A DNA stretch of 64,000 nucleotides, taken from NCBI GenBank assembly GCA_031082185.1, contig JAVHLI010000011.1:35735-99734 (forward strand). Reading direction: 5' to 3'. The translations under genes were made by a program, and so were the position numbers. Below, piece by piece: positions 54,907 through 63,357 of this stretch. Source of the stretch: a bacterium. GTDB taxonomy: Bacteria; Sysuimicrobiota; Sysuimicrobiia; Sysuimicrobiales; Humicultoraceae. The notes beneath the pieces are model-generated. The model had not been told where the DNA came from and ran no database searches. It was given only the letters and a program-made list of their open reading frames with translations. Within the stretch, counting starts at the first letter, position 1, and every line of letters starts with the position of its first letter.

Positions 54907-55500
54907 ATGCCAGATGCACGATACGAACGCACCCTAGTCTTCCTGAAGCCGGACGGCGTCCAGCGCGGGCTGATCGGGAAGATCGTGGGGAGGTTTGAGG
55001 GTGCGGGGTTGAAGGTGATCGGCCTGAAGATGATGCGGGCGACGCCCGAGCTGCTGGAGCGCCACTACCCATCGGACGAAGGATTCCTGCGCACCATTGG
55101 CGGCAAGACGCGCGAGGCGTTTGAGGCCGCGGGCCTGGACGTCCGGCGCGAGGCGGGCACCGATGACCCTCTGGCCATCGGGCAGAGGGTGCGGCGGTGG
55201 CTGATTGAGTTCGTGGCGTCCGGGCCGGTGGTCGCGTTTGTACTGCAGGGCACGCACGCCGTCTCGGTTACCCGGAAGATGGTCGGCGACACGCTGCCCT
55301 ATCGGGCCGCGCCGGGAACAATCAGAGGCGACCTGTCCGCCGACTCACCGACCGTCGCCAACCTCCAGAAGCGCCCCGTGCGAAATCTGGTCCACGCCTC
55401 GGGGACGCTCGATGAAGCCGAGGCCGAGATCGGGATGTGGTTCTCTCCCCAGGAGCTGTATGACTACCGCAGGGTGGACGAGGAGATCATCCTAGGGTAG
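54907..55500 (+). CDS. ndk: Nucleoside-diphosphate kinase (long form with an internal insertion)
   Basis: ERTLVFLKPDGVQRGLIGKIVGRFE, GTIRGD, and catalytic His in NLVHASG. It carries about 40 extra residues after ...ERHYPSDEGF compared with the canonical ~140-150 aa Ndk. Confidence 0.85.
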   Translation: MPDARYERTLVFLKPDGVQRGLIGKIVGRFEGAGLKVIGLKMMRATPELLERHYPSDEGFLRTIGGKTREAFEAAGLDVRREAGTDDPLAIGQRVRRWLIEFVASGPVVAFVLQGTHAVSVTRKMVGDTLPYRAAPGTIRGDLSADSPTVANLQKRPVRNLVHASGTLDEAEAEIGMWFSPQELYDYRRVDEEIILG

Positions 55501-56253
55501 CGCTTCTCCAAGCACCCATCCGCTGCCTGAGAGCACCTCGCCGGGCCGGGGATCGGCCGGCAGGACCCCACGGTCGGCCACCAGCGAGAGGGTGGCCCCG
55601 GCCGTGGCGATGCGCATCCACCAGAACCGCTCGCCGGTGGCCACGTTGGTCAGCTCGTGTGACTCGCTGACGTACCCTGTCACCAAGGCCGTCGCGTCGG
55701 CGTCGCCGGAGGGCTCGTCCGCGCCGTGGTGGATGCTCGACGCGAACGACTGCACCGGGGGGCGGTACGAGTGCTCCCTGACCGCCTCGTAGGCGCGCGC
55801 ATCCGCGTACAGCGTGGCCTCGTGCAGGATCACGGCGAGGCGTATCGTGATAACGTTCTCCGGGTGCAGGTGCTGCTTGACGGCAAGGTAATTCACCAGA
55901 TCAACCCGCAGCGGGAAGGCCCCGGAGTACGGCTCGTCCTCCTCGGTGGGATTGAGCCAGCCGTCAATCCAGCCTTCAAATCCGTCGTAGTCGGAAGGGC
56001 CGGCGCCGGTCAGCGCGATGCGGCAACTGTCGTCGCCGGCGAAGAACGGGGTGGCGATCAACGCCTCCCCTGCCTCGTGGGTCTGTACCCAGATCTCGGG
56101 CCCCCCACCCGGAGCCCACCTCACCAGCGTATGCCTGCCTTCACTTGCGATGCGGCTGCCGGCCTGCGCGGCCCGCCGCGCAAGCGCCCAATACTCGCGC
56201 ACCTCGCGCACTGGGAAGCCGATGGCTGTGAAGTGGCTGGACATGGTCGCCAT
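55492..56253 (-). CDS. Hypothetical protein (253 aa), no family recognised
   Basis: An ATG-started ORF with a clean, non-repetitive, acidic composition. It is divergent from nrfA. Confidence 0.45.
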   Translation of the reverse strand: MATMSSHFTAIGFPVREVREYWALARRAAQAGSRIASEGRHTLVRWAPGGGPEIWVQTHEAGEALIATPFFAGDDSCRIALTGAGPSDYDGFEGWIDGWLNPTEEDEPYSGAFPLRVDLVNYLAVKQHLHPENVITIRLAVILHEATLYADARAYEAVREHSYRPPVQSFASSIHHGADEPSGDADATALVTGYVSESHELTNVATGERFWWMRIATAGATLSLVADRGVLPADPRPGEVLSGSGWVLGEALP

Positions 56254-56355
56254 GAAATCCTTTCCCGGAGCGGCGCGGTATTCCTCCAGGGAGGTAATCC
56301 GAGGCCGCGGAAGAACAATGTGTCTGGACCGCCATCCGATGGAAGGGGGCGATCA

Positions 56356-57663
56356 GTGGTGCGCATCCGCTACCTGGTGGTCGTGGCCCTGGGGGTTGTC
56401 CTAGCAGCGGGCATCGCCGCGCTGTTGGTGACGATCGTCGTCCGGCAGCAGGAATCCCGCCTCACCTACTTCAGGGTCGTGGATGTGGCGGAGAACGAGC
56501 CTGACCCCGCGGTCTGGGGCCGCAACTTCCCCGATCAGTACGAGGCGTACCTGAAGACGGTACGGACCTCTGAGCTTGTCAAGTACAGCGCCTACGGGCG
56601 CTACGGTGGATCCGAGGCGTTCTCAAAGCTCGACAAGTACCCTGACCTTGTCAGGATCTTCGCCGGGTACGCGTTCAGCGTTGAGTACCGCGAGGAGCAG
56701 GGACATCTCCAAGCGATGAAGGCCGTGCAGGAGACGAAGCGGCTAGGCGATGCGAAGCCGGGCACCTGCATGACCTGCAAGTCGAGCGATGTGCCCCGGT
56801 TGATGAAGTCGCTCGGCGCGGCCCAGTTCTACGCCACCCCGATGAAGGAGCTGATTGAAAAGAACAACATCAAGCACGCAATCTCCTGCGCCGACTGCCA
56901 CGACGCCAAGACGATGGCCCTTCGCGTGACCCGGCCGGCGTTCATCGAGGCGATGAAGGTCCGGGGGATTGACGTGGGCGCATCTTCCAGGCAGGAGATG
57001 CGGACCTACGTGTGCGCACAGTGCCACGTGGAGTACTACTTCCGGGGCAAGACCGAAAAGTACCTGGTGTTCCCCTGGGCCAAGGGTTTGAAGATCGAAG
57101 ACATTGAGGCCTACTACGACGAGATCAAGTTTTCCGACTGGCAGCACGAGATTACCAGGGCGCCGATGGTCAAGATCCAGCATCCCGAGTTCGAGCTGTG
57201 GTCCAGCGGGAACCACGCCCGCTCCGGCGTGGGCTGCGCGGACTGCCACATGCCCTACAAGAGGGTGGGGTCGGTCAAGATCACCGACCACTGGATCCGC
57301 TCGCCGCTGCTCAACGTGCAGAACGTCTGCACGACCTGCCACCGCCAGTCCGAAGCCGAGATGCGCGCGCGCGTCCTGGAGGCCCAGGACCGGACCTACC
57401 AATTGTTGACGCAGGCGGAACGGGCGATCGTTGACGCCATGGCCGCGATAGAGAAGGCGATGGCCGAGGGCGTCACGGATCAGGACCTGGCCGGAGCCCG
57501 CGGGCTGCACCGCAAGGCGCAGATCCGCTGGGACTTCATCAGCGCGGAGAACAGCATGGGCTTCCACAGCCCGCAGGAGGCCGTCCGGATCCTGGGCGAC
57601 GCGATTGACCACGCCAGGCAGGCCGAGATCGCCGCGCTCAAAGCACCCCGACCGAAACGGTAG
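56356..57663 (+). CDS. nrfA: Pentahaem cytochrome c nitrite reductase, catalytic subunit
   Basis: ORF 55726..57663 trimmed to GTG 56356, which has GGAAGGGGG upstream. An N-terminal TM anchor, one CxxCK (CMTCK) and four CxxCH (CADCH, CAQCH, CADCH, CTTCH). Confidence 0.9.
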   Translation: MVRIRYLVVVALGVVLAAGIAALLVTIVVRQQESRLTYFRVVDVAENEPDPAVWGRNFPDQYEAYLKTVRTSELVKYSAYGRYGGSEAFSKLDKYPDLVRIFAGYAFSVEYREEQGHLQAMKAVQETKRLGDAKPGTCMTCKSSDVPRLMKSLGAAQFYATPMKELIEKNNIKHAISCADCHDAKTMALRVTRPAFIEAMKVRGIDVGASSRQEMRTYVCAQCHVEYYFRGKTEKYLVFPWAKGLKIEDIEAYYDEIKFSDWQHEITRAPMVKIQHPEFELWSSGNHARSGVGCADCHMPYKRVGSVKITDHWIRSPLLNVQNVCTTCHRQSEAEMRARVLEAQDRTYQLLTQAERAIVDAMAAIEKAMAEGVTDQDLAGARGLHRKAQIRWDFISAENSMGFHSPQEAVRILGDAIDHARQAEIAALKAPRPKR

Positions 57664-57672
57664 CGGGAACCC

Positions 57673-58116
57673 GTGCGCCCCTGGGCAGTAACCGGCTTGG
57701 CGCTGGCCTTCCTGGCCGGCAGCGTCCTCGGCTTGGGCGCGTACACGTTCGTGTACGGCAAGGGCTACTCATACCTGCTCGACGACCCCGCCGCCTGCGT
57801 CAACTGCCACATCATGCGCGACAACTACGACGCCTGGGCAGTCGCGACGCACCGGACCGTGACGTGCAACCAGTGTCACGTTCCAAAGGGATTGGCGGCC
57901 AAGTACCTGGCCAAGGCAAGGAACGGCTTCCTGCACTCGTACGCCTTCACGTTCAAGGACGTTCAGGTGATTCGGATCAGGCCGTTGAACCAGCGGGTTC
58001 TCGAGGCGAACTGCCAGGCCTGCCACGCGCGCATGGTCGCGCTCGTCGAGCCGTACGGCCCGCAGCCGTCGAAGCTGTGCTTCGCGTGCCACAGGGGCGT
58101 GGGGCACGGGTTCTAG
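57673..58116 (+). CDS. nrfH: Tetrahaem NapC/NirT-family quinol dehydrogenase
   Basis: A TM anchor and four CxxCH motifs (CVNCH, CNQCH, CQACH, CFACH). It lies immediately downstream of nrfA. Confidence 0.85.
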   Translation: MRPWAVTGLALAFLAGSVLGLGAYTFVYGKGYSYLLDDPAACVNCHIMRDNYDAWAVATHRTVTCNQCHVPKGLAAKYLAKARNGFLHSYAFTFKDVQVIRIRPLNQRVLEANCQACHARMVALVEPYGPQPSKLCFACHRGVGHGF

Positions 58117-58658
58117 CCGCCGGCGGCGAAGTAGTCCTCGTCGAGGATCGCGTACCGGATCGTGTCGTGCCACCGGCCTTCCGCCCAGATGCGCTTGCGA
58201 AAGACGCCTTCGCGCTTGTAGCCTGCCTTCTCCAGTGCCTGCTGGCTGGCCTGGTTCTCGGCGAGCGCCTCGGACTCGAGCCGGTGCAGGTTGAGGGTTT
58301 CGAAGGCGAACTTCGTGCGCACCCGCATCACGTCGGTGGCATAGCCCTGCCCCCAGGCGTCCCTGTCTCCGATCACGATGCCGCTGGTGGCCCGCCGCTG
58401 CCTCCAGTCTATGCCGTGGAGGCCGGTGAAGCCGATGTGCCGGTTGCGCTCGTCGTGGATCGCCCAGGCATAGTCGGTATCCCGCTTCTGCACCTTCTGG
58501 AACCACTCTTCCTCCATCCCCGGGGTCACGCCGGTGGAGAGGTTGAGATACCGCGTGACCTCCGGGTCGTTCATCCAGCGCAGCGCATTGTCGAAGTGCA
58601 TCGAGCGGTCCACAGGAATCAGCCGCACCTTCTCACCACGCAGCCCCACGATCTCCAT
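58113..58658 (-). CDS. GNAT-family N-acetyltransferase (RimJ/RimL-like)
   Basis: ORF trimmed to ATG 58658, which has AAGGAGG upstream. VRLIPVDRSMHFDNALRWMNDPEV, WGQGYATDVM, and LHRLESEALAENQASQQALEKAGYKREG. Confidence 0.8.
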   Translation of the reverse strand: MEIVGLRGEKVRLIPVDRSMHFDNALRWMNDPEVTRYLNLSTGVTPGMEEEWFQKVQKRDTDYAWAIHDERNRHIGFTGLHGIDWRQRRATSGIVIGDRDAWGQGYATDVMRVRTKFAFETLNLHRLESEALAENQASQQALEKAGYKREGVFRKRIWAEGRWHDTIRYAILDEDYFAAGG

Positions 58659-59784
58659 CGTTGATCCTCCTTCCGCCGGCGTGGCGCCGCAGGTACTCCT
58701 GGTAGGCGCCCGGGAAGTGCTTCCGGTAGAGAGCCAGGTTGAATCCCTCGTCCACATCCGAGGTGCGCCACAGTTCGTGGAGCGCCCCATAGTCAAGGTC
58801 GGCGACCACGATCTCCTCCTGATCCCACGACGCCGCCTGCGCCAGGACGCCGGATCCGTCCGGGGTCAGCTCGACCGGAGCCAGGATCGCGCTCCGGCCT
58901 GTGATCGTCATTCCCAGGAAGCGACCCACCATCGCGGCGTGTATCCCGTAGGTGAGACTCTCCTGCACGCGCGGCCACAGCCCGCGCAGCGCCTTCCACT
59001 CGTTGTAGGTGCCCTCCTGCACGTCGCACGCCGGGATCAGGATCACCTCTGCTCCCAGGCCTGCTAGGATGCGCGACGTCTCGAAGTACGTGGCGTCCAT
59101 GCAGATCGGGAACCCCAGGGCGCCCACCGGAGTGCGCACGACGCGCAGATCGTCCCCTGCCTCCAGGCCCCACGATGCCTCCAGCGGCAACAGGTGGCAC
59201 TTCACCTGCTGCCCGAGCAGCGTTCCGTCCGGACCAAAGAGGTAGCCGACATTGCGCACGGCCCCGTGCTCGTCCGGCAGCATCGCGCTCCCGCTGGCGA
59301 CGTAGACACCCAGCCTGCGCGCCACTTCCGAGAAGGTCGTCATGTAGGCGGTCCGGACCGCCGGGCCGATGAAGCGCAGGATATCGGCCAGCCTGACGCC
59401 CGGCCCGGCCACCGCGCCGGTCGCCTGCGCGAGCGAGACATCGTCGGCCAGGCCGTCGAGCCCGGGCAGGAGCCCCACCAGGTGCGTGCCGCTGTCCTCC
59501 GGGAAGACGATCAACTGCGCGTCCAGGGCCGCGGCGTTGCGCGCGCGCGAGGCAATCATCTGCGCGTATTCGGAGGCGTCGCCGATGAGCCGCAGCCGCA
59601 TCTGTACCGCGGCAACCCGCACCCTGGCCGAGGGCGGCGAGGTGCACGGTGGTAGCGATGAGCAGTTGTCCGTGCGTTCGAGCCGCATGCGGTCGAGCGC
59701 AGCACGGATGAGACCGGGCCGGGTGCGCCAGCCGAGCCAGTGTCGAAAGGCAGCTTCGCGCAGCCGCGCGCTAAGGCCCATCAC
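58633..59784 (-). CDS. Carbon-nitrogen hydrolase (nitrilase-superfamily) protein with an intact Glu-Lys-Cys triad
   Basis: Glu in LIVFPEDSG, Lys in GQQVKCHL, Cys in GFPICMDATYFE. The GTG/ATG start overlaps the stop of the upstream paralog (GTGATG). Confidence 0.8.
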   Translation of the reverse strand: MMGLSARLREAAFRHWLGWRTRPGLIRAALDRMRLERTDNCSSLPPCTSPPSARVRVAAVQMRLRLIGDASEYAQMIASRARNAAALDAQLIVFPEDSGTHLVGLLPGLDGLADDVSLAQATGAVAGPGVRLADILRFIGPAVRTAYMTTFSEVARRLGVYVASGSAMLPDEHGAVRNVGYLFGPDGTLLGQQVKCHLLPLEASWGLEAGDDLRVVRTPVGALGFPICMDATYFETSRILAGLGAEVILIPACDVQEGTYNEWKALRGLWPRVQESLTYGIHAAMVGRFLGMTITGRSAILAPVELTPDGSGVLAQAASWDQEEIVVADLDYGALHELWRTSDVDEGFNLALYRKHFPGAYQEYLRRHAGGRRINDGDRGAAW

Positions 59785-60740
59785 TCACCCCGCCACCGTT
59801 CGTAGATCGCCGGCAGATAGCGGGCGTAGAGCACCGGGTTGAGTTGGGAGAAAATGTCGTAGGCGCGCACCACCTCTTGCAGCGCCGCCACGTCGAGATC
59901 CGTGGTGAGCAGACAGTCCCCCTCGCGGTCCAGGACGGCCAGCCAGCCGGTCTCGCCGGCGGTCATCTCCACCGGCGCGACCGCCGCGGTACGGGACTGC
60001 CAGCGCACGCCGGCAGCGGCTCCGCACAGGCCGGCCTCTACCCCGAAGACCTGGTTCTGTTGAACCTGCTGCCATAGGCCGCGCCACTGGTGCCGTTCCC
60101 CGTACGGAGGAGAGACCGCGACAGGACACGCCAGAACCACGGCGTCCTGCAGCGCCAGGATCCGCGCCGCTTCCGGGTACCACAGATCGGTTCCGATGAG
60201 GATGCCGACCCGGCCCGACGGGGTGTCGGCGGGTCGCAACTCATCCCCGGGTACCCATCCCAGGTGCCGCTCGGCCGCGGTGAGGTGCGTCTGGACCTGC
60301 CAGCGCACCACCCTGCCGTCCGGCGTGATGAGGGGCGCCGCGTGGTGCCAGGCGCCGGGTGGCCGGCTGCCGGGTAGCCCGCCGTGCGGCCCGGTGCTGC
60401 CGTTGCCGCCCGGGGCCGGCACGCCGGTCGGCCACACCACCGTGCCTGGGAGCAGCGTCACGTGATACCCCGACGCCAGGCGGCGCGCTGCCCGCAACCA
60501 CTCGCCCGCCGCATCGGCCACCTCTGCCGTGCGTTCCTGGGGCCAGGGCTCCAAGAAGGGACAGTCCATGCCAAGCGAGCCGGCCACATATAACGTGCCT
60601 GTATGGGCCGGGAAGATCACCAGCTGCGAACCAGCACCGGCGGCCGCCTCGACGAACCGGGCGGTGGCGGTCAGCACGGTCCTGGTTGTGCCCAGGCCTC
60701 CGGCGTCCAGTTGCACCGCGGCGCACCGGATGTTGCTCAT
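59781..60740 (-). CDS. Carbon-nitrogen hydrolase paralog lacking all three catalytic residues (probable pseudoenzyme)
   Basis: This is the C-terminal 319 codons of ORF 59781..62108, starting at ATG 60740 (ATGA overlap with the MFS stop). It aligns by eye with the downstream paralog: FPAHTG vs FPEDSG, WQVQTHL vs QQVKCHL, ILIGTDLWYPE vs FPICMDATYFE, and the C-terminal DLDVAALQEV...LYARYLPAIYE vs DLDYGALHEL...LYRKHFPGAYQ. Confidence 0.7.
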   Translation of the reverse strand: MSNIRCAAVQLDAGGLGTTRTVLTATARFVEAAAGAGSQLVIFPAHTGTLYVAGSLGMDCPFLEPWPQERTAEVADAAGEWLRAARRLASGYHVTLLPGTVVWPTGVPAPGGNGSTGPHGGLPGSRPPGAWHHAAPLITPDGRVVRWQVQTHLTAAERHLGWVPGDELRPADTPSGRVGILIGTDLWYPEAARILALQDAVVLACPVAVSPPYGERHQWRGLWQQVQQNQVFGVEAGLCGAAAGVRWQSRTAAVAPVEMTAGETGWLAVLDREGDCLLTTDLDVAALQEVVRAYDIFSQLNPVLYARYLPAIYERWRGE

Positions 60741-61975
60741 CGCGCACCCCGGATCCGCCAGATCAGCCCCGAACCTATCAGCAGGTAGACCGCTCCGGCC
60801 ACCAGCAGCACCACATACCCCAGATTCGGTTCCCGCAGATTGAACTTGTCGAGCAGCGGGCCTCCGAGCAGCGGCGCCAGCACTTGAGGAAGTGTTGTCG
60901 CGATGCCCCATATCCCCATGTCCTTGGCGGCCGCGGTCTCCCGCGACGGCAGCACGTCGGTCGCCAGCGCCCAGTCCACGCTGATGAACGCGCCGTAACC
61001 CAGGCCGAAGACCACGGAGAAGCCCAGCAGCAGTGGGAAGCTCGGCGCGGTGAGGAACAACAGGCAGGGCGCGGCCATCAGCACCGCGGAAGCGCACACG
61101 ATGCCCCGCCTTCCCACACGGTCCGAGAGCCAGCCCGCTAGGAACGCACTGGCCAGCGCGCCGATCACCACGACGGCGCTCACGGTCCCGGTCGCCTCCT
61201 TGAAGCGGGCGATGCCCATGAAGTCCTTGAGGAAGTACTGGAGGAAGTTGAACACGGTATAGAAGCCCATCAGTACGAACAGGCGCGAGACGAACAGCCA
61301 CGCGAAGTCCGGGTGCCGGCGCGGGTCCACCCAGAACCCGCGCAGAAACCTTCCCATATCGAACGGGCCGGCGGGCTGGGGCCGGGCCTCGCGCACGCGC
61401 CAGACCGTGATCGCCAGTGTCACGGCGAGGACCGCCGCGATCAGCCAGTAGACCTGGGCCCGGTAGCCGCGCTCCATTAGTATGCCGGCGGCCACCGCCG
61501 CGGCGATGGTCCCCAGCATGGTCATCAGCCCCATCCATCCCGACGCCACGCCGCGTTGATCGTCTGGGACCAGGTCGGGGATGAGGCCGCTGTAGGCAGA
61601 TCCGCCCAGATTGTTGGAAAACTGCACCAGCCAGTAGGCGGCCACGAATGCCGTAAGCGTTGGGGACGCGCCCATCCACGCGAGGGCGGCCACGTTCAGG
61701 ATTCCGCCCACGAGCATGAACGGCCGCCGACGGCCCATCGCAGCGCGACTGCAGTCGGAGAGTGCGCCGGCGATCGGCATCACGATCATGGCAATGGCCG
61801 CCCCGCCCGCGAACACCAGGGAGAGGGCACGGCCCTTCTCCGCGTCCGGGACGAACCGCAGCACCTCCGCGGGGATCACAATGGCGAGCAACGCGCCCCA
61901 ATGGAAGTTGAGCCCGAACCAATAGAGACTGAGTGAGAGAAGGTTGCCGGTGCTCATGCGCCGTCGCGGTTCCAT
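60737..61975 (-). CDS. MFS-type transporter (12 TM)
   Basis: ORF 60737..62038. The start is probably ATG 61975 or 61957. About 12 hydrophobic segments, with a loop motif GALSDCSRAAMGRRRPF after TM2/3. Confidence 0.75.
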   Translation of the reverse strand: MEPRRRMSTGNLLSLSLYWFGLNFHWGALLAIVIPAEVLRFVPDAEKGRALSLVFAGGAAIAMIVMPIAGALSDCSRAAMGRRRPFMLVGGILNVAALAWMGASPTLTAFVAAYWLVQFSNNLGGSAYSGLIPDLVPDDQRGVASGWMGLMTMLGTIAAAVAAGILMERGYRAQVYWLIAAVLAVTLAITVWRVREARPQPAGPFDMGRFLRGFWVDPRRHPDFAWLFVSRLFVLMGFYTVFNFLQYFLKDFMGIARFKEATGTVSAVVVIGALASAFLAGWLSDRVGRRGIVCASAVLMAAPCLLFLTAPSFPLLLGFSVVFGLGYGAFISVDWALATDVLPSRETAAAKDMGIWGIATTLPQVLAPLLGGPLLDKFNLREPNLGYVVLLVAGAVYLLIGSGLIWRIRGAR

Positions 61976-62070
61976 CCACCACCCCCGGCAGGAAGCAGTG
62001 CGGCTCTTCAGGAAGCGACCGTAGGGCCGGAGTTCCACACGCGGAGTTCCACACTCGGAGGAGGACCCCT

Positions 62071-63357
62071 TTGCGCACGCGGTTTCCAGATGGGTTCCGG
62101 TGGGGCACCGCGGCCAGCGCCTACCAGTTCGAGGGCGACAGCCGCGCCAGCGATTGGTGGTCCTGGGAGCAGCAGCCCGGACGCATACTGAACGGCGACC
62201 GGTCGGGCCTGGCCTGCGACTGGTGGCACCACGCCGAGCGTGACTTCGATCTGATGGTCGGGCTGCACCAAAGCGCCCTGCGGCTGTCGGTCGAGTGGGC
62301 CCGGCTCGAGCCCCAGGAAGGGCGCTGGGACCACGCCGCCGAGGAGCGCTACATAGAGATGCTGCGCGGCCTGCGCGATCGGGGGATCGAGCCCCTGGTC
62401 ACGCTCAACCACTTCACGCTGCCGAAGTGGGTCGCCGAGCGAGGCGGGTGGCTTTGGGATGGGATCGTGCCGGCGTTCGGCGCGTTCGCCGGCAGGTTCG
62501 TCAGGGCGGTGGTGGGTGCGGCCGGCGGTGGCGCGCCGCTGGTGGACTTCTGGATAACGATCAACGAGCCGGTCGCCCACCTGATCAGCGCCTATGTGCT
62601 GGGGCGGTTCGCGCCGGGGCAGACCAGGGTCGTCGCGTTCACCCGGGCGCTGGTGCGCTCGATAACGGCCCATGCCGCGGCCTACAACGCAATTCACGAA
62701 GCGCAGCCGGATGCCAGGGTGAGCGTAGCCGCGTACCTGCGGCCGGCCGTACCCGCCCGCCCGCGCTCTCCGCTTGACCAGTGGATAGCGGGGCGGCTCG
62801 ACCACATCGTCAACTGGATGTATCTGGACGCGCTCGCTACAGGAGTGCTGGCAGGTCCGTTCGGAGTGCGTGCCAGGGTGCCGCAGGCGGCCGGCACCCT
62901 GGATTTCCTGGGCGTCAACTACTACACCCGAAGCCGCGTGGCGTTCGATCTGCGTCGGCCGGGCCACCTGTTCGTGCGGGATGAGCCGGCGCCCGGCGCT
63001 ACGATCACCGACGGCGGATACAGCGAGATCTATCCCGACGGCCTGCTGGACGTGCTCAGGCGCGTGCGTGGTTACGGTCTTCCGGTATACGTCACCGAAA
63101 ACGGCCTGCCCGATGCCGACGACGACCTCCGGCCCCGTTTCATCGTCGAGCACCTGCGCCGCGTGGCCCAGGCGATAGACGAAGGGTGCCCGGTGCGCGG
63201 CTACTATCACTGGTCGCTGGTGGACAACTTCGAGTGGGCGGACGGCTGGAGCCTGCGCTTTGGGCTCTACTCACTGGACCCCGCGACGCAGGTGCGAACG
63301 ACGCGCCCCAGCGCGGCGCTTTACGGGGAGATCAGCAGGAGGAACGCGCTGCCGTGA
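62071..63357 (+). CDS. GH1-family beta-glucosidase/beta-galactosidase
   Basis: ORF trimmed to TTG 62071, which has GGAGGAGG 7 nt upstream. FPDGFRWGTAASAYQFEG, acid/base ITINEP, and nucleophile YVTENG. Confidence 0.9.
   Translation: MRTRFPDGFRWGTAASAYQFEGDSRASDWWSWEQQPGRILNGDRSGLACDWWHHAERDFDLMVGLHQSALRLSVEWARLEPQEGRWDHAAEERYIEMLRGLRDRGIEPLVTLNHFTLPKWVAERGGWLWDGIVPAFGAFAGRFVRAVVGAAGGGAPLVDFWITINEPVAHLISAYVLGRFAPGQTRVVAFTRALVRSITAHAAAYNAIHEAQPDARVSVAAYLRPAVPARPRSPLDQWIAGRLDHIVNWMYLDALATGVLAGPFGVRARVPQAAGTLDFLGVNYYTRSRVAFDLRRPGHLFVRDEPAPGATITDGGYSEIYPDGLLDVLRRVRGYGLPVYVTENGLPDADDDLRPRFIVEHLRRVAQAIDEGCPVRGYYHWSLVDNFEWADGWSLRFGLYSLDPATQVRTTRPSAALYGEISRRNALP

Follow-up and report, generated by a model that had tools for sequence, protein, structure and literature searches.

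Why should a bacterial operon carry, directly in front of an intact carbon-nitrogen (CN) hydrolase gene, a second copy of that gene whose product lacks the catalytic residues? The question is raised by a stretch of 64,000 nucleotides (nt) of contig JAVHLI010000011.1 (assembly GCA_031082185.1), from a bacterium of the Sysuimicrobiota. We refer to the whole stretch as the window, and all coordinates are positions in it. On its minus strand, between 58113 and 62038, the open reading frame (ORF) listing contains four tightly packed ORFs in the order MFS transporter, CNH-2, CNH-1 and GNAT acetyltransferase. CNH-1 is the catalytically intact ("live") nitrilase-superfamily protein, and CNH-2 is its triad-less ("dead") paralog. 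The comparative data described below point to an uncharacterised enzyme architecture, found in a few hundred species of bacteria, that pairs the active protein with an inactive copy. The features of the pair in the window are the following (aa, amino acids):

59781..60740, minus strand: CNH-2, triad-less nitrilase-superfamily paralog, 319 aa; PF00795 score 40.1 bits
58633..59784, minus strand: CNH-1, catalytically intact nitrilase-superfamily protein, 383 aa; PF00795 score 79.4 bits
60354..60425, minus strand: Gly/Pro-rich loop insert of CNH-2, residues 106-129
59779..59784, minus strand: GTGATG stop/start overlap of CNH-2 and CNH-1, read from the sequence

Both proteins score above the gathering cut-off of PF00795 (CN_hydrolase; 23.2 bits), which makes them members of the nitrilase superfamily by sequence. 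In a pairwise alignment they share 31% identity over about 326 columns (E 8e-31). Judged by this alignment, the likeness is not due to chance and the two are paralogs. CNH-1 has the complete catalytic tetrad, consisting of Glu96 (59497-59499), Lys195 (59200-59202), Glu202 and Cys228 (59101-59103). CNH-2 retains the second catalytic Glu (Glu157) and has Ala45 (60606-60608), Gln150 (60291-60293) and Gly183 (60192-60194) in place of the first Glu, the Lys and the Cys. The initial annotation, made from the letters alone, had read these exchanges as FPE to FPA, VKCHL to VQTHL and ICMD to IGTD. They were borne out by pairwise and profile-to-structure alignments, and a search with the PF00795 hidden Markov model (HMM) together with a structure-based alignment confirmed both the membership and the triad positions. 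When the dead-family profile is aligned with solved structures, Pyrococcus PH0642 has LVVLPE, RKIHL and MICFD opposite the substituted sites of CNH-2. That annotation had itself named shifted but present Glu, Lys and Cys residues as the result that would speak against it. Such residues are absent from CNH-2 in the pairwise, family and PDB-profile alignments, and we rejected this possibility. CNH-2 thus belongs to the superfamily by fold and descent and lacks its catalytic triad.

Relatives of CNH-1 were sought in one genome per species, covering 185,579 species. There were 249 loci, of which the best 80 were retrieved. These come mostly from uncultured Bacillota (Dethiobacter, Thermaerobacter, Syntrophomonadaceae, Desulfitispora, Halanaerobiales), and the closest among them belongs to a Candidatus Nitrosymbiomonas genome (Armatimonadota). 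HMMs for the dead and the live type were then used to score every ORF in 83 loci. The dead gene stands immediately upstream of the live gene in 70 of the 83 loci, with a spacing of -4 nt in 32 of these 70, and in another 6 the two are joined in a single polypeptide with the dead domain N-terminal and the live domain C-terminal. Five loci are cut by a contig end, the C-terminal end of the dead gene still being visible in three of them, and the remaining two (L037 and L038) have a live gene alone. Both of the latter are contigs of Syntrophomonadaceae metagenome-assembled genomes, where the solo gene (L037 962-2002, L038 1344-2468) is flanked by rubrerythrin and response-regulator genes on the opposite strand. 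Intact dead-type orthologs were present in 76 of the 83 loci, from Armatimonadota and many Bacillota. The pair also occurs in the genome records of Metallumcola ferriviriculae, Zhaonella formicivorans and Ca. Contubernalis alkaliaceticus, and in a second Armatimonadota genome (L088).

CNH-2 as the query yielded 13 relatives, all without the triad. On three contigs of these relatives the dead gene lies directly upstream of a live CN-hydrolase gene with a 4-nt overlap; an MFS gene is found upstream in two of them and a GNAT gene in none. CNH-1 as the query gave 323 hits, including proteins of 616-664 aa that are dead-N/live-C fusions. A HMMER search of 1.84 billion representatives (50%-identity library) returned 295 proteins at E <= 1e-30. 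Of the top 150 hits, 142 proteins were new, and these comprised 125 single-domain dead-type proteins, 8 clear dead-live fusions and two more proteins with two or three domains whose N-terminal domain was weakly classified; no clear case of the live-N/dead-C order was found among them. Fusions are always dead-N/live-C. In a neighbour-joining tree of the live domains, unfused pairs separate them into at least three clades; the tree carries no support values, so that the number of fusion events is approximate. The conserved unit is the dead-then-live pair and not the four-gene operon.

The loss of the catalytic residues is a property of the whole dead family. While Glu, Lys and Cys do not vary among 14 CNH-1 homologs or in any of the live domains in the 83 loci, 119 cluster representatives of the dead type contain no Glu at the first position (Ala in 113/119), no Lys at the second (Gln in 119/119) and only three Cys at the third (Gly in 110/119). 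The dead family has invariant residues of its own, namely Gln148, Gln150, Asp185, Pro189-Glu190, Trp223, Gln227-Gln-Asn-Gln230 and Glu235, and a nearly invariant CEMT motif. Ratios of nonsynonymous to synonymous substitution rates (dN/dS), calculated against the orthologs in L004-L006, are 0.22-0.27 for CNH-2, 0.17-0.26 for CNH-1, 0.11-0.14 for the MFS protein and 0.16-0.19 for the GNAT protein. Pairwise identities of dead and live proteins co-vary (Pearson 0.90, 75 pairs), with the dead partner evolving somewhat faster (mean identity 36% versus 46% for the live partner). Selection therefore acts on the dead paralog, and its gene is linked to that of the live one, a combination that is the genetic mark of a "prozyme".

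The overlap of CNH-2 and CNH-1 in the window is the same 4-nt overlap as in 32 of the 70 unfused related loci. At the junction of MFS and CNH-2, ATGA at 60740-60737 combines the MFS stop (TGA) with the CNH-2 start (ATG). At the next junction, GTGATG at 59784-59779 contains the CNH-2 stop (TGA, 59783-59781) and the CNH-1 start, which is either the GTG at 59784 or the ATG at 59781. A start at 59784/59781 is supported because the N-terminal extension of about 50 aa that it gives CNH-1 is conserved among homologs. We considered that this extension might be a docking helix made superfluous by fusion and rejected the idea, as several fusion clades keep the extension and others have lost it. Both subunits of the family share a C-terminal LNPxLYxxYxPxxY tail. 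The Gly/Pro-rich insert that the initial annotation had noted in CNH-2 is real and represents a lineage-specific loop; its length varies among close orthologs and it is absent from P0011, P0012 and the Bacillota homologs.

Structure models agree with the fold assignment. The AlphaFold2 model of CNH-2 has a predicted local distance difference test score (pLDDT) of 92.5 and a predicted template modelling score (pTM) of 0.91. It has the alpha-beta-beta-alpha sandwich and matches CN hydrolases in Foldseek with template modelling (TM) scores of 0.72-0.80; the Gly/Pro-rich insert has a pLDDT of 57-76 and no secondary structure. The model of the fusion P0025 (pLDDT 89.4, pTM 0.89) is one compact body in which both halves are confidently modelled and only the linker (270-296) is disordered, and it matches the same CN-hydrolase structures. 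For both models, the Foldseek E-values to small amidase structures are about 1e-18 to 1e-19. As a prediction, the P0025 model supports a tight two-domain body.

The initial annotation had described the pair as part of a block of four overlapping minus-strand genes. Direct reading agreed with its coordinates and with all three junctions, including the 26-nt overlap between the GNAT start (ATG at 58658) and the CNH-1 stop (58633). The flanking genes are:

60737..61975, minus strand: MFS transporter, 412 aa from the ATG at 61975, ORF open to 62038; MFS_1 E 3e-34, MFS_2 E 9e-27; 12 hydrophobic segments in a hydropathy scan
58113..58658, minus strand: GNAT acetyltransferase, 181 aa, starting 26 nt inside the CNH-1 3' end; Acetyltransf_3 E 2e-29
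61933-63357, plus strand: GH1 beta-glucosidase-like gene, divergent from the MFS gene; TIGR03356 E 1e-80, below the cut-off

The block as such is not conserved. In a tblastn search with the window GNAT, this gene was found only in L005-L007, where it is 92-94% identical and the CNH-1 proteins are 86-88% identical to those of the window; the GH1 gene accompanies the operon in L005 and L006 only. L004, where the pair directly abuts nrfH, has no GNAT, and neither has L088; none was present among the annotated recurrent neighbour clusters or in any other locus examined, the nearest GNAT genes of L085 lying 4-6 kb downstream and outside the operon. The proposed linkage of CN-hydrolase and GNAT thus fails as a general feature. 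The last ca. 20 residues of CNH-1 (...RRHAGGRRINDGDRGAAW; window 58633-58690) form a clade-specific tail that is absent in most homologs, and the region encoding it contains the ribosome-binding site of GNAT (Shine-Dalgarno sequence GGAAGGAGG at 58674-58666) as well as its start. The 26-nt overlap is therefore a by-product of a recent GNAT insertion, and GNAT is a recent, genus-level addition to the operon. The link to the MFS gene stood in part: orthologs with 45-92% identity flank the pair in 13 loci, one also occurs in L088, and MFS_2-type genes lie within 5 kb in 25 loci, but many loci have the pair alone.

On the other side of GNAT, the window contains nrfA/nrfH-like genes (56350-58116, plus strand) for a pentahaem cytochrome c nitrite reductase and a NapC/NirT-type partner, identified via Pfam Cytochrom_C552 and Cytochrom_NNT hits on the L004 orthologs. 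nrfH is convergent with GNAT, and the two stops (58116 and 58113) overlap by 4 nt. Between ndk and nrfA lies a gene for a conserved 253-aa protein (55492-56253, minus strand; 74-92% identity in L004-L007), with no Pfam hit recorded for the L004 ortholog. The order NDK, 253-aa protein, nrfA, nrfH is retained in L004-L007. A promoter and terminator scan of the operon region gave no hits, and at about 67% GC such a scan is uninformative.

When all genes within 5 kb of the pair were clustered, two neighbours recurred. One, in 25 loci, is an MFS_2/GPH-type transporter; the other, in 22 loci, is a GH125-like domain protein of about 625 aa. Only these two recur in different arrangements. GH125-like, dead and live genes with overlapping stops and starts are found in L011, L041 and L085, the order GH125-like, MFS, dead, live in L024, and a convergent MFS_2 plus GH125-like operon in L087. 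RuvABC, a beta-eliminating lyase, a PP-loop ATPase and a 4HBT thioesterase were rejected as partners, as they look like clade-level synteny. The GH125-like protein (about 620-670 aa; e.g. L024 3832-5706, L011 5162-7045, L085 4408-6273 and L087 9518-11524) is often encoded in the same operon as the pair. Its C-terminal region is distantly similar to GH125, an alpha-1,6-mannosidase family; no NCBIfam model matches it, and PDB hits reach only about 1e-10. The GH1 gene of the window may stand in for the GH125-like gene of other lineages.

Some neighbours were seen at few loci. These are PIG-L deacetylases and, identified by eye, an amino-acid permease-like membrane protein and a phosphohexomutase-like protein. 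In one clade (L072, L082 and L083, e.g. L083 3002-3727), the stop of the live gene overlaps or abuts the start of a PIG-L/LmbE-type de-N-acetylase gene; by its family it would be another sugar-amide-related neighbour. Directly downstream of the pair in L001 (10114-11562), L021 (9092-10537), L025 and L009 (9126-10523) are genes for proteins of about 450-480 aa whose N-terminus resembles a signal peptide and whose last residue is aromatic (...SWTQAF, ...SWKWPF, ...GVCYSF). No Pfam or NCBIfam model matches them, and they could be outer-membrane beta-barrels of diderm lineages; if so, this would be an uptake operon. At the Zhaonella formicivorans locus (L086 8495-9802), a lysine-2,3-aminomutase-type radical SAM gene (Radical_SAM plus LAM_C) is convergent to the pair. 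It was seen once and, given the GNAT of the window, is a possible lead towards beta-lysine-type amide solutes.

We consider it likely that CNH-2 and CNH-1 form an asymmetric, pseudo-heterodimeric hydrolase of the nitrilase superfamily with a prozyme-like dead partner. CNH-1, with its full Glu-Lys-Glu-Cys set, would hydrolyse an amide, carbamoyl or nitrile C-N bond through a thiol acyl-enzyme. CNH-2 would be an ancient paralog that kept the whole fold but no longer has the first Glu or the Lys and, with rare exceptions, also lacks the Cys; it would take the place of the second protomer in the two-fold dimer across the conserved A interface that is basic to the superfamily, leaving a single active site. 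For a pair that is universally coupled and repeatedly fused, this is the simplest reading. Like a prozyme, the dead subunit would be needed for the live one to fold, to become active or to acquire its specificity. With the genes translationally coupled and the dead one in front, a 1:1 ratio of the products would be expected, and several lineages have joined both genes into a single dead-N/live-C polypeptide. As to the substrate, an imported small molecule is probable and a glycoside-linked amide possible, since the pair recurs beside an MFS/GPH-type transporter and a GH125-like glycosidase (MFS and GH1 in the window).

Several observations weigh against this interpretation. The binding between unfused CNH-2 and CNH-1 is something that we infer; the compact model is that of a fused homolog, P0025, and not of the two window proteins. 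In L037 and L038 a live gene stands with no dead partner nearby; that partner may be dispensable there or may be encoded at another site. A set of polar residues is invariant in the vestigial pocket of the dead family (Gln148, Gln150, Thr151, His152 and Glu157), which could reflect ligand binding or another function rather than pure scaffolding. As to the substrate, many loci have the pair alone and what the neighbours suggest is weak. Searches of the window and of 18 related loci for a riboswitch or leader RNA found none. Curated families gave no clue either: no NCBIfam equivalog came near its cut-off for CNH-1 or CNH-2, and PDB sequence and fold hits were all distant generic amidases.

These points lead to the question of which other explanations could account for the pair. 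The loss of all three triad residues and the low-complexity Gly/Pro insert would fit a decaying duplicate, a pseudogene in the making that is still open. The comparative data refute this explanation, and we give it practically no probability: orthologs are intact in 76 of the 83 loci, neither frameshifted nor absent as decay would have it, 125 of the 142 newly returned top HMMER hits are single-domain dead-type proteins, the dN/dS of CNH-2 is 0.22-0.27, and the family has its own invariant motifs and has been fused repeatedly to the live gene. The initial annotation had favoured a maintained pseudoenzyme subunit over a decaying copy, and this idea is strongly supported and extends well beyond one locus, with the gene order kept in 70 of 83 loci and fusions in 6; the physical complex itself is inferred, with the natural fusions as its only proxy. 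An inhibitory CNH-2 that keeps the hydrolase off in mixed oligomers is hardly more credible. Oligomer poisoning by dead paralogs is a known general mechanism, but an obligate 1:1 coupling with the dead gene first makes little sense for an inhibitor, permanent covalent fusion has occurred in at least three clades, and a live gene without a dead partner is rare (2/83 loci).

Another explanation takes the four genes of the window as one cassette in which an imported amine or amide is de-acylated by the pair and re-acylated by GNAT. In the window and in L005-L007, GNAT starts inside the CNH-1 3' end behind a strong Shine-Dalgarno sequence, and it is under purifying selection (dN/dS 0.16-0.19). Its absence from L004, L088 and all other loci examined, and from the annotated recurrent neighbours, makes the cassette quite improbable, as does the origin of the overlap in a clade-specific tail of CNH-1. 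It may hold as a local elaboration within the genus, which would leave the pair itself unexplained. A somewhat better case can be made for a CNH-2 whose Gln-Thr-His...Glu pocket has been repurposed for ligand or substrate recognition, as an allosteric sensor or for other chemistry, the two proteins then being a two-function complex or separate co-operating proteins. All 119 representatives have Gln where the catalytic Lys would stand, Thr151, His152 and Glu157 hardly vary where a mere scaffold would be expected to allow more variation, and one subclade retains the Cys (AQC type). Yet the live paralog also conserves His152, Glu157, Asp185 and the YPE motif, and solved CN hydrolases have HL and D..FPE/D..YPE at the aligned positions, so these residues may be structural. 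In addition, the first Glu and the Lys, which known CN-hydrolase chemistry needs, are absent everywhere, and both the fusions and the compactness of the model speak for a tight complex. We therefore regard this explanation as improbable. That a prozyme-like CNH-2 binds a substrate or ligand in its vestigial pocket in addition to its role as scaffold or activator seems rather unlikely to us. More tentatively than the heterodimer itself, the pair could be the first obligate enzyme/pseudoenzyme heterodimer of the nitrilase superfamily, with an indispensable dead subunit whose pocket has been repurposed for part of the substrate (e.g. the sugar moiety of an imported glycoside-amide) or for a regulatory ligand; we think this possible, if on the unlikely side. 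If true, the repurposed pocket would provide a specificity beyond that of any homodimeric CN hydrolase.

How does such a heterodimer compare with known systems? According to two papers (PMC5154151 and PMC6214922, citing Jenrich et al. 2007), the nitrilase paralogs NIT4A and NIT4B of Poaceae must form heterocomplexes for activity, and interfaces between unlike subunits shape the active site. NIT4A/B are the closest precedent within the superfamily, as both cases involve nitrilase-superfamily paralogs; they are eukaryotic branch-1 nitrilases that form helical filaments, whereas the pair described here is encoded by operonic or fused bacterial genes. Both NIT4 isoforms keep their catalytic residues, unlike the CNH-2 family, which lacks the first Glu and the Lys throughout and has nearly always lost the Cys. 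The nearest functional analogy would be the principle of the trypanosomatid prozymes, which are described in PMC5201418 and PMC3663545 as dead paralogs that activate live AdoMetDC and deoxyhypusine synthase (DHS). In these systems, one copy of an old duplication has lost its activity and persists as the obligate hetero-oligomeric partner of the active copy; we propose the same for the window pair. The folds and the chemistry are unrelated, the prozymes are eukaryotic and encoded by unlinked genes, and their activating role is experimental whereas that of CNH-2 would follow from comparative data.

Among structurally characterised proteins, the small amidases (mouse Nit2 2w1v, Medicago N-carbamoylputrescine amidase 5h8i, Helicobacter pylori CN hydrolase 6mg6, Pyrococcus PH0642 1j31/6ypa and a Nesterenkonia amidase) have the same fold (TM 0.7-0.8) and share the E-K-E-C tetrad with CNH-1. 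Their identity to the window pair is only 15-26%; they are built of identical active subunits and differ in lacking the N-terminal extension of the live subunit and the C-terminal tail common to both. Three assignments to known groups were rejected. Branch-1 nitrilase models scored far below their cut-offs (NF040852, 57.5 bits versus 500; TIGR04048, 25.9 versus 502.6), as did the N-carbamoylputrescine amidase model (AguB, TIGR03381; 39.6 and 46.8 bits versus 410). Apolipoprotein N-acyltransferase (Lnt) does not fit, with no transmembrane-like segments in CNH-1 and one borderline hydrophobic stretch in CNH-2 (KD19 1.73). The Pace and Brenner classification of 2001 reportedly includes superfamily branches fused to GNAT, so that CN-hydrolase and GNAT are genetically linked there as in the window. 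Here they are separate genes whose link is confined to the window and L005-L007, and we judge these branches not relevant. A nitrilase-superfamily pseudoenzyme, heterodimer or tandem was not found described in the full-text literature, although a description in a subscription journal is possible.

The literature found describes nitrilase-superfamily enzymes as homo-oligomers in which all subunits are identical and active, with the grass NIT4 heterocomplexes as the one published exception. With 249 species-level loci and 295 clusters at 50% identity (E <= 1e-30), this bacterial family is widespread, and its second protomer appears to be a paralog that is permanently dead. Database labels such as "nitrilase-related carbon-nitrogen hydrolase" or "predicted amidohydrolase" over-predict enzyme activity for these dead subunits. 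The family would be a clean and genetically tractable model for why the dimer is needed and how pseudoenzymes evolve from homodimers, and the independent fusions offer ready single-chain versions for structural work. For the organisms themselves, the recurring MFS and GH125-like neighbours suggest the catabolism of an imported compound, perhaps an amide-carrying glycoside; this would be a catabolic route so far unrecognised in Armatimonadota and in subsurface and anaerobic Bacillota.

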